From Candidatus Yanofskybacteria bacterium (GTDB lineage Bacteria > Patescibacteriota > Minisyncoccia > 2-02-FULL-40-12 > IGHO2-12-FULL-4), in the NCBI GenBank assembly GCA_016185525.1, contig JACPNK010000006.1, positions 22,728-86,727 on the forward strand: a DNA stretch of 64,000 nt. Reading direction: 5' to 3'. This document shows positions 62,194-64,000 of this stretch, in pieces. How positions within the stretch are numbered: position 1 is the first letter of the stretch; every line of letters starts with the position of its first letter. Position numbers and translations under genes: made by a program. The notes under the pieces are model-generated. The model was not told where the DNA came from, did not search any database, and saw only the letters and a program-made list of their open reading frames with translations.

Positions 62194-63417
62194 ATGCCTA
62201 AAACCAAAAAAATAAAAAATAAAAAACCTTTGAAAAAAAAGAAACCTGCCAAGGCCAAAAAAGCCAAGTTTCATGTTTCAAAAAAACAGAGCAAGCCAAA
62301 GGCAAAACCGGCAAAAAAACCCGCCAAAGTTAAGGTTCCCAAGGAGTTGATTAAAGAAGAAGACATTTTAAAGTTGATTGAAAAGGGTCGTCATCGCGGT
62401 TTTGTTACCGAGTCGGAAATTATGCACACCTTTCCGCATATTGAAAAAGATATTGAGGGATTGGAGAGGCTGTACGAGAGGCTGGAGTCTTCAAACATCA
62501 ACATTATTGAAACGGGCAGAGTCTTTGAACAGGATCGGGCTAAAGAATTTGAGGAAAAGAAAAAATTGGAAACCGAACTTGGCGATATTTCTTCAGACTC
62601 GGTGCAAATGTATTTGCGGGAAATTGGCCAATATCCGCTTTTGCGGGCCGAAGAGGAAGTTGACTTGGCTAAGAAGATTTTAGAAAGCGACGAAGCGGCC
62701 AGACAAAAACTTATTTTATCCAATTTGCGTCTGGTGGTTTCAATCGCTAAAAAATATATCGGGCGTTCGGCAAATTTAACTCTTTTGGATTTAATCCAAG
62801 AGGGTAACATCGGTCTTTCAAAAGCCGTTGAAAAATTTGACTACAAAAGGGGCTACAAATTCTCAACTTATGCAACTTGGTGGATCCGGCAGGCTATTAC
62901 CCGCGCTTTGGCAGACCAGGCCAGAACCATCCGTATTCCAGTGCATATGGTTGAAACGATAAACAAGTATCAGCAAGTGGTCAGAAGGTTGGTGCAGGAT
63001 TTGGGGCGGGAGCCTTTGCCGGAAGAAGTCGCTATGGAAATGGGGATGGATATAGACAAAATCAGGCATATTATTAAAATTTCCCAAGATACAATTCCTT
63101 TGGAAACTCCGGTGGGCGATGACGACGAAGACAGCATGCTGGCGGATTTTATTCCTGACGAAGACAGCATCTCGCCGGCGGTTTCAGCGGCGCGCAGGAT
63201 TTTGAAGGATCATCTGGTTGAGATTATTGCTGACCTGACTCCGCGTGAACAAAAAATTCTTGAGATGAGATTTGGCTTGAATGATGGCGTTCTGCATACT
63301 CTTGAAGAAGTCGGCAAAGTTTTTGCCGTTACCCGCGAACGCATCCGACAAATTGAAGCGAAGGCGTTAGAGAAAATCAGACAGCATCATAAGGCGGAGA
63401 AGCTTAAAGGCTATTAG
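62194..63417 (+). CDS. rpoD: RNA polymerase sigma factor RpoD (sigma-70) with lysine-rich N-terminus
   Basis: Regions 2-4: [38 protein letters not shown]. Confidence 0.92.
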
Positions 63418-63638
63418 CCTTTAAGCTTCGGAGTCCAGCCCTTTCTAAGACTTTAAAGAAAGAGCTGTGGCAGATAAGCTTAAGGGATATTAGTGAAATT
63501 TCTAATTTCCCCGTAAAGGGCCAGTGGCCCCACGGGGCTTTACTGGCTAATTAACCTAATTTCTAAATTCTAAACGAACGCCTATTTGTAAAAACACTGA
63601 AAATAGCGTAAATTTGTCTTAGTTTGAAAATTAAATAT

Positions 63639-63910
63639 TCCCCGGTAGCTCAGCGGTAGAGCGGCTCGCTGTGAAATAACGCAGCTACCTAGAGAAATCT
63701 AGGATGAAAAACTTTGGGATAACGGTGAAACCTTTTTTAAAATGGTAACACCGTGGGAACCACGTAAAATGCTAAGGCATCACGTGGGCGCCGTAGAGAC
63801 TAGATACCGAAGCACCCAACAGTAGGGTGGTGATATAGTCCATCCCACTACGAAAGTAGTGGACAAATGTAACGAGAAGGTCGTAGGTTCGATCCCTACC
63901 CGGGGAGCCA
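63639..63910 (+). tRNA. tRNA (tentatively Asn, anticodon GUU after splicing) interrupted by a group I intron
   Basis: 5' exon TCCCCGGTAGCTCAGCGGTAGAGCGGCTCGCTGT; 3' exon TAACGAGAAGGTCGTAGGTTCGATCCCTACCCGGGGAGCCA; acceptor halves pair perfectly. Confidence 0.6.
63673..63869 (+). ncRNA. group I intron (197 nt) in the tRNA anticodon loop
   Basis: Follows a U in the exon and ends in G; contains the R-like GTAGAGACTAGA and S element GATATAGTCC. Confidence 0.55.
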
Positions 63911-64000
63911 AAAGTTGACACAGTACAGTTTTAGTGTTACTGTACGATCAGTTCTCGTTAGATTAAAGTCAAAAATAGGGTGCAAATGAAAAAATCTATC

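Follow-up and report, generated by a model that had tools for sequence, protein, structure and literature searches.

The window analyzed here, a stretch of 64,000 nucleotides, very probably carries a tRNA-Asn(GUU) gene of a Patescibacteria genome, split by an ORF-less group I intron of 197 nt that lies between U35 and U36. The whole split gene spans positions 63639-63910, downstream of dnaG and rpoD, and its exons and intron elements all read on the + strand. The intron class is already known from descriptions and splicing experiments of 2025-2026, and the locus is a further ORF-less, compact member. This intron type was included when the intron-interrupted tRNA types were expanded to 21 (Williams, bioRxiv 2020; 10.1101/2020.01.27.920355), and is cited as type 'Asn.4Ug' by Nakagawa et al. 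(mSystems 2026; PMC13011429), who reported 35/36 introns in 15 tRNA-Asn(GUU) and 3 tRNA-Asp(GUC) genes among 95 complete Patescibacteria genomes, together with precise in vitro self-splicing of one tRNA-Asn (GCA_016700035.1) and one tRNA-Asp (GCA_001029755.1) intron. The window locus shares with that class its host tRNA, insertion site, U(-1), terminal G and phylum, a guide GCAG that pairs with C32-U35, the core GTAGAGACTA...GATATAGTCC, and the property of being overlooked by default tRNA finders. The compact tRNA-Asn intron of a Paceibacteria genome listed in Table S3 of that study (GCA_030583765.1) is approximately 75% identical to ours over 182 aligned positions and has the same helices; the exact intron and exon strings of the window were not found in the stored text of the supplement (PMC13011429).

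The 5' exon (63639-63672; tRNA positions 1-35) contains the acceptor 5' strand, the D-arm, the anticodon stem strand GCUCG and loop bases C32, U33, G34, and U35, and the 3' exon (63870-63907) extends from U36 to G73, followed by a genomically encoded CCA (63908-63910). Re-reading of positions 63400-64000 bore out each of the arm pairings proposed in a first-pass annotation of this DNA, namely an acceptor stem of TCCCCGG (63639-63645) with CCGGGGA (63900-63906), a D-arm of GCTC-AGCGGTA-GAGC and a T-arm of GTAGG-TTCGATC-CCTAC. The insert, there described as 197 nt that start after a U and end with a G, is indeed exactly 197 nt (63673-63869), preceded by U63672 and with G63869 as its last base, and the Asn(GUU) loop that it had predicted is likewise obtained: the loop reads CUGUUAA once 63672 is joined to 63870, and the 75-nt spliced product is recognized by ARAGORN as tRNA-Asn(GTT). 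When every combination of candidate boundaries, 10 at each end of the insert, was spliced in silico, several others also produced cloverleaves (Thr, His, Tyr, and others), and 63672|63870 alone had a 7-nt loop together with U(-1) and G as the last intron base; G63869 is the only terminal guanosine (omega-G) that restores the 7-nt anticodon loop. Nakagawa et al. define their class by insertion at 35/36 in a tRNA whose anticodon is GUN, and the window intron, placed between U35 and U36, conforms to this.

An intron-less orthologue bears directly on this parse. Intron-less genes with the same anticodon stem were sought in metagenomes, which led to a contig (L149; Ga0209542_10010106) with an RpoD that is 98% identical in protein sequence to that of the window, and with 88% DNA identity across 1433 bp covering the 3' end of dnaG and rpoD. 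At the same position downstream of rpoD, this contig encodes a contiguous tRNA-Asn(GTT) that is identical to the predicted ligated exons at 74 of 75 positions, the sole difference being position 26 in the 5' exon (G vs. A), and positions 63870-63911 (42 nt), which take in the 3' exon, are 100% identical. The intron is precisely missing from the orthologous locus, and at the level of sequence this empty site settles the predicted junction, anticodon and boundaries.

A search for the pattern GATATAGTC-N(12-42)-GTAA-N13-GGTTCGA in 185,579 species-representative genomes returned at least 120 loci. Among the matches listed, a complete tRNA-Asn(GUU) split at 35/36 was recovered in 113 of 120 loci, with introns of 180-723 nt, and all 114 reconstructed introns end in G, albeit by construction, as the pattern demanded one. 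The first-pass annotation had named a better tRNA parse with other exon boundaries as the finding that would overturn its reading, and none emerged. The only competitor is a tRNA-Thr(UGU) gene whose intron would lie at 33/34, shifted upstream by two bases: joining 63670 to 63868 does give a cloverleaf that ARAGORN calls tRNA-Thr(tgt), and Thr calls are common for such genes, being frequently produced by ARAGORN and tFind (Table 1 of PMC13011429). In that parse, however, the intron would terminate in A63867 instead of G, and at the 5' splice site the conserved wobble U·G would give way to a U33-A63683 pair. The tRNA body is moreover of the Asn type, with U1-A72 and discriminator G63907 (G73), from which just one of the 114 Asn genes reconstructed among the matches listed departs; the intron-less orthologue has a contiguous GTT anticodon in a gene otherwise matching at 74 of 75 positions; and sequenced spliced products of homologues have their junction at 35/36 (PMC13011429). 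We therefore give the threonine parse practically no credence, and retain tRNA-Asn(GUU) with the junction at 63672|63870. The G·A mismatch that had been pointed out in the anticodon stem is real, and corresponds to G27·A43. As the 27:43 mismatch recurs in relatives (unpaired in 7 of 15) and in the intron-less orthologue, it is a trait of the lineage rather than a sign of a wrong parse, and the remaining four anticodon-stem pairs covary across both exons.

Run with default settings on the raw window, ARAGORN reported only tRNA-Leu(CAG) and tRNA-Ser(GGA) and missed the split tRNA-Asn. A simple scan of 63300-64000 for sigma-70 promoters and intrinsic terminators returned nothing usable, its sole promoter-like match falling within the intron at chance level. 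The block AAATAG(C/T)GTAA(A/G)TTTGT(C/T)TTA upstream of the tRNA is shared between the window (63601-63622) and the intron-less contig (approximately 1433-1454), where the remaining spacer has diverged; it may constitute the tRNA promoter region, although it failed the sigma-70 consensus scan. Separately, the terminal 25 nt of rpoD, stop codon included (63393-63417), recur with 84% identity in 63469-63493, and a perfect 15-nt palindrome (63399-63413/63415-63429) lies across the rpoD stop codon. The spacer that leads from rpoD to the region upstream of the tRNA is approximately 180 nt longer in the window than in the intron-less contig, and it is the second repeat copy (63469-63493) that more resembles the rpoD end of that contig; the extra sequence may represent a small insertion with target duplication.

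The group I assignment is supported by covariance modeling, thermodynamic folding and comparative evidence. The covariance-model check that had been proposed in the first-pass annotation was positive: the Rfam group I model RF00028 detects the fold at 63663-63862 on the + strand, scoring 55.4 bits where the gathering score is 50 (E = 2.5e-11 for the 64-kb window and all 4227 families), and the match covers the model in full length (1-253). The additional matches in a permissive Rfam scan of 63300-64000 were sub-threshold chance ones, to eukaryotic miRNA and snoRNA models. The minimum free energy (MFE) of the precursor lies at z = -5.2 relative to shuffled sequence, and the unconstrained MFE fold recovers the acceptor stem, P1, P2, P4-P6, and P9. 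For the comparative analysis, 15 compact-type sequences (the window and 14 relatives) were aligned with MAFFT, fitted to no structure, and the pairings tested were those read from the window sequence. Standard pairs occupied 92.8% of cells, vs. 35-44% when the 3' partners were slid by 1-3 columns; both-side (compensatory) changes occurred in 27 of 52 pairs, and none of 500 shuffles reached the observed covariation score. Such changes, found in P1 (intron side), P2, P3, P4/P5, P6a, P8, and P9, uphold the group I interpretation, whereas P7 and the exon part of P1 are invariant in this alignment and give no covariation signal either way.

The individual helices can be followed along the intron. 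P1 (63669-63684) is formed by exon bases C32-U35 (63669-63672) and intron base G63673 with C63680, G63681, C63682, A63683, and G63684, closing an L1 loop of 63674-63679, with the wobble U63672·G63681 at the 5' splice site; all five pairs form, and the wobble is present, in 15 of 15 sequences of the compact alignment. The intron-side pair covaries (GC in 8, CG in 6, UG in 1). In contrast, the guide GCAGC is invariant across a separate alignment of 57 loci, which in the case of GCAG follows from its pairing partner being the invariant loop bases C32-U35. The P2 hairpin (63688-63693/63698-63703; CCUAGA/UCUAGG) bears a GAAA tetraloop (63694-63697) that is of the GNRA type in all relatives, and has changed on both sides in 6 of 6 pairs. 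The 5' strand of P3, CUUUGG (63712-63717), and its 3' strand, CCGAAG (63807-63812), identified from the alignment of relatives, pair in 100% of cells, with both-side changes in 4 of 6 pairs. Positions 63722-63754 comprise P4 (63722-63727/63749-63754), P5 (63730-63732/63744-63746) and a U/A-rich distal stem-loop, in accordance with the MFE fold, with 94% of cells paired and three pairs changed on both sides. In the subsequent P6 domain (63755-63792), which is supported by both alignment and MFE fold, P6 (GG/CC) is invariant, P6a (CCACGU/ACGUGG) is paired in 77.5% of cells with both-side changes in 4 of 6 pairs, and P6b (AUGC/GCAU) has a UAAG loop. The P8 hairpin (63813-63817/63825-63829; CACCC/GGGUG) encloses a 7-nt loop and is paired in 94.7% of cells, with 4 of 5 pairs changed on both sides. 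Finally, the P9 hairpin (63845-63851/63856-63862; CCACUAC/GUAGUGG) is capped by a GAAA tetraloop (63852-63855), again a GNRA tetraloop in relatives, with both-side changes in 5 of 7 pairs.

Both of the group I elements named in the first-pass annotation, one R-like and one S, are present in the insert, as GTAGAGACTA and GATATAGTCC. The former is the 5' strand of P7, G-(A bulge)-GACUA (63796-63802), which sits inside the invariant GUAGAGACUAGAUACC: G63796 is followed by bulged A63797, and 63798-63802 are paired, with 63836-63841 as the partner strand, such that 6 of 6 pairs are standard and invariant in 15 of 15 sequences. The latter comprises J8/7 and the P7 3' strand, within GUGAUAUAGUCC (63830-63841), which matches the Rfam consensus; GATATAGTCC is invariant in the 57 sequences, largely by construction, as nine of its ten bases were set by the retrieval pattern. 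We take this P7, from established group I knowledge, to be the predicted guanosine-binding helix. All of the conserved core elements are intact and identical to the family invariants, and all helices pair. As the gap between P7 and the P3 3' strand consists only of GAUA (63803-63806), P7.1 and P7.2 are absent. These helices, located between P7 and P3', are a classical feature of subgroup IA. Nearly all Patescibacteria tRNA introns were assigned to subgroup IA, and none to IC (PMC13011429).

The homologous introns fall into two architectures, which also differ in the sequences of P3, J3/4, P4, and P6 (compare, for example, L054, L011, and L058 with the window, L061, and L120). Among the matches listed, 82 of 114 are of the majority type, with P7.1/P7.2 inserted after P7; 19 of 114, including the window, are of the compact type, in which AGACTA is followed directly by GATACC; and 13 of 114 match neither signature. 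The introns of 510-720 nt contain an HNH-like ORF of 100-120 aa that starts in the P1 loop, approximately 30 nt from the 5' end of the intron, and has a CxxC...HH...CxxCH motif, with Pfam HNH scores of 19-20 bits, just under the 21.4-bit cut-off. Introns with this ORF (L045, L093, L095, L113, L055, and about 30 other loci) occur in both architectures, and HNH genes have been reported in four tRNA-Asn introns (PMC13011429). The window intron differs from these long members in having no such gene: sense ORFs of 40 aa or more are absent from 63673-63869.

A course of expression for the window gene can be proposed by combining the general group I pathway with what in vitro assays have shown for homologues (PMC13011429). 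The gene would be transcribed as a precursor of approximately 272 nt, in which the intron would fold into its P1-P9 core, with the guide 5'-CGCAG-3' (63680-63684) pairing with G63673 and C32-U35, so that U35·G63681 marks the 5' splice site. The attack after U63672 would come from a free guanosine bound in P7; the terminal G63869 would then occupy the G-site, and the 5' exon would attack after G63869. In homologues tested in vitro, a change of the terminal G to C blocked exon ligation (PMC13011429). Exon ligation would create the loop CUGUUAA in a 75-nt tRNA that already has its CCA, with ...GCUCGCUGU|UAACGAG... as the expected junction. Comparison of the 3' exon start UAAC with the L1 loop revealed no convincing P10 pairing, and so the anticodon stem, composed of GCUCG of the 5' exon and CGAG of the 3' exon, probably holds the exons together. 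Catalysis by the window intron is inferred by analogy with these homologues, as is the activity of the compact form, given that the tRNA-Asn intron tested in vitro differs from ours in having P7.1.

The intron could instead be a decayed relic that splices inefficiently, leaving a tRNA pseudogene while another tRNA-Asn gene does the work. Several points would accommodate decay: splicing of the window sequence is a prediction, the intron is among the shorter ones of its family (197 nt) and lacks P7.1/P7.2, an intron-less allele exists in a very close relative, and our view spans 64 kb of the genome. Against this, a relic would hardly be expected to have retained every core element in its family-invariant form with every helix paired, or exons that are intact, 74/75 identical to the intron-less orthologue and complete with CCA. 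Among the matches listed there are also 18 other compact-type introns, from diverse lineages, whose compensatory changes imply selection on the fold. We accordingly regard decay as very improbable, and prefer a functional intron in an intact tRNA-Asn gene.

Small introns in tRNA anticodon loops are familiar from other bacteria. The Azoarcus tRNA-Ile(CAU) intron, a subgroup IC3 intron of about 205 nt inserted at 36/37, is likewise small and ORF-less in a bacterial tRNA anticodon loop, with P1-P9 lacking P5abc and P7.1/P7.2, and with GAAA tetraloops on P2 and P9. In Azoarcus, the GAAA loops of P2 and P9 dock into P8 and P5. Judged by this general architecture, the window intron probably works as the Azoarcus intron does, although the two differ in host tRNA and in insertion site (36/37 vs. 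35/36 in the window). The cyanobacterial and plastid tRNA-Leu(UAA) intron (34/35) also belongs to the self-splicing group I class, interrupts a bacterial tRNA anticodon loop, is usually ORF-less and is patchy among relatives, but differs in tRNA, insertion site and phylum, and is of subgroup IC3.

Approximately three quarters of the listed loci bear Patescibacteria/CPR names, and a few are labeled Omnitrophota, Elusimicrobia, Planctomycetales, or 'Gammaproteobacteria'. The gene order dnaG-rpoD-tRNA-Asn is common to the window and many of the listed loci, including Patescibacteria assemblies, and the closest informatively labeled intron-bearing locus among the matches listed is a Paceibacterota MAG (L120; RpoD 76% and DnaG 58% identical). 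The shared synteny and relatedness to this MAG would place the window in the Patescibacteria, as a Paceibacteria/Parcubacteria-like genome. The genome from which the window derives is not itself among the listed loci, and exact matches to the DnaG of the window were confined to three short Logan contigs. Split tRNA-Asn genes labeled 'Gammaproteobacteria' were found at L013, L044, L067, L068, L084, L092, L103, and L116, several of which have dnaG-rpoD-tRNA-Asn synteny and an RpoD 58-62% identical to that of the window; this window-like synteny and RpoD identity suggest that the labels may be binning or naming errors. Other labels from outside the Patescibacteria are Omnitrophota (L015, L018, L022, L065, L111), Elusimicrobia (L088, L091), Planctomycetales (L040), and Oligoflexia (L041); in the Omnitrophota and Elusimicrobia, the split gene may truly occur beyond the phylum. 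As an aside on RNA genes elsewhere in the window, a 5S rRNA match (171-260) directly follows the 3' end of a 23S rRNA (1-109) and is 90 nt long relative to a 120-nt model, 41 model positions of the 3' half being represented by 11 nt.

Alleles with and without the intron are interleaved among relatives with 76-85% RpoD identity to the window. Beyond the orthologue with 98% RpoD identity (L149), intron-less loci occur at 85% (L226, partial), 79% (L133), and 78% (L230), and intron-bearing loci at 79% (L098) and 76% (L120), both sets having been chosen by pattern, such that no frequencies can be derived from them. This interleaving shows intron gain or loss over a short evolutionary scale. The nearest intron to that of the window, among the matches listed, is that of L120, with 79% identity over aligned positions; a nearest intron in a fairly close host fits vertical descent plus losses, and is compatible with recent gain too. 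Lacking a homing endonuclease gene, the window intron should not move by itself, and gain could proceed through reverse splicing into the C32-U35 target or through the action in trans of an HNH endonuclease from a long-form intron. We advance tentatively, and consider rather unlikely, the idea that Patescibacteria populations continue to acquire ORF-less, compact 35/36 introns; the alternative to ongoing gain is that the introns are old and have been lost repeatedly.

As one more compact, ORF-less example, the locus leaves the picture of group I introns unchanged, and its main use is in the correct annotation of tRNAs in Patescibacteria genomes. Since default ARAGORN misses the split gene, this genome would appear to have no tRNA-Asn, and omissions of this kind distort tRNA-based estimates of the completeness of Patescibacteria genomes, as noted by Nakagawa et al. 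(PMC13011429). Together, the window and its intron-less orthologue form a clean natural pair in which to study how reduced genomes gain and lose tRNA introns.
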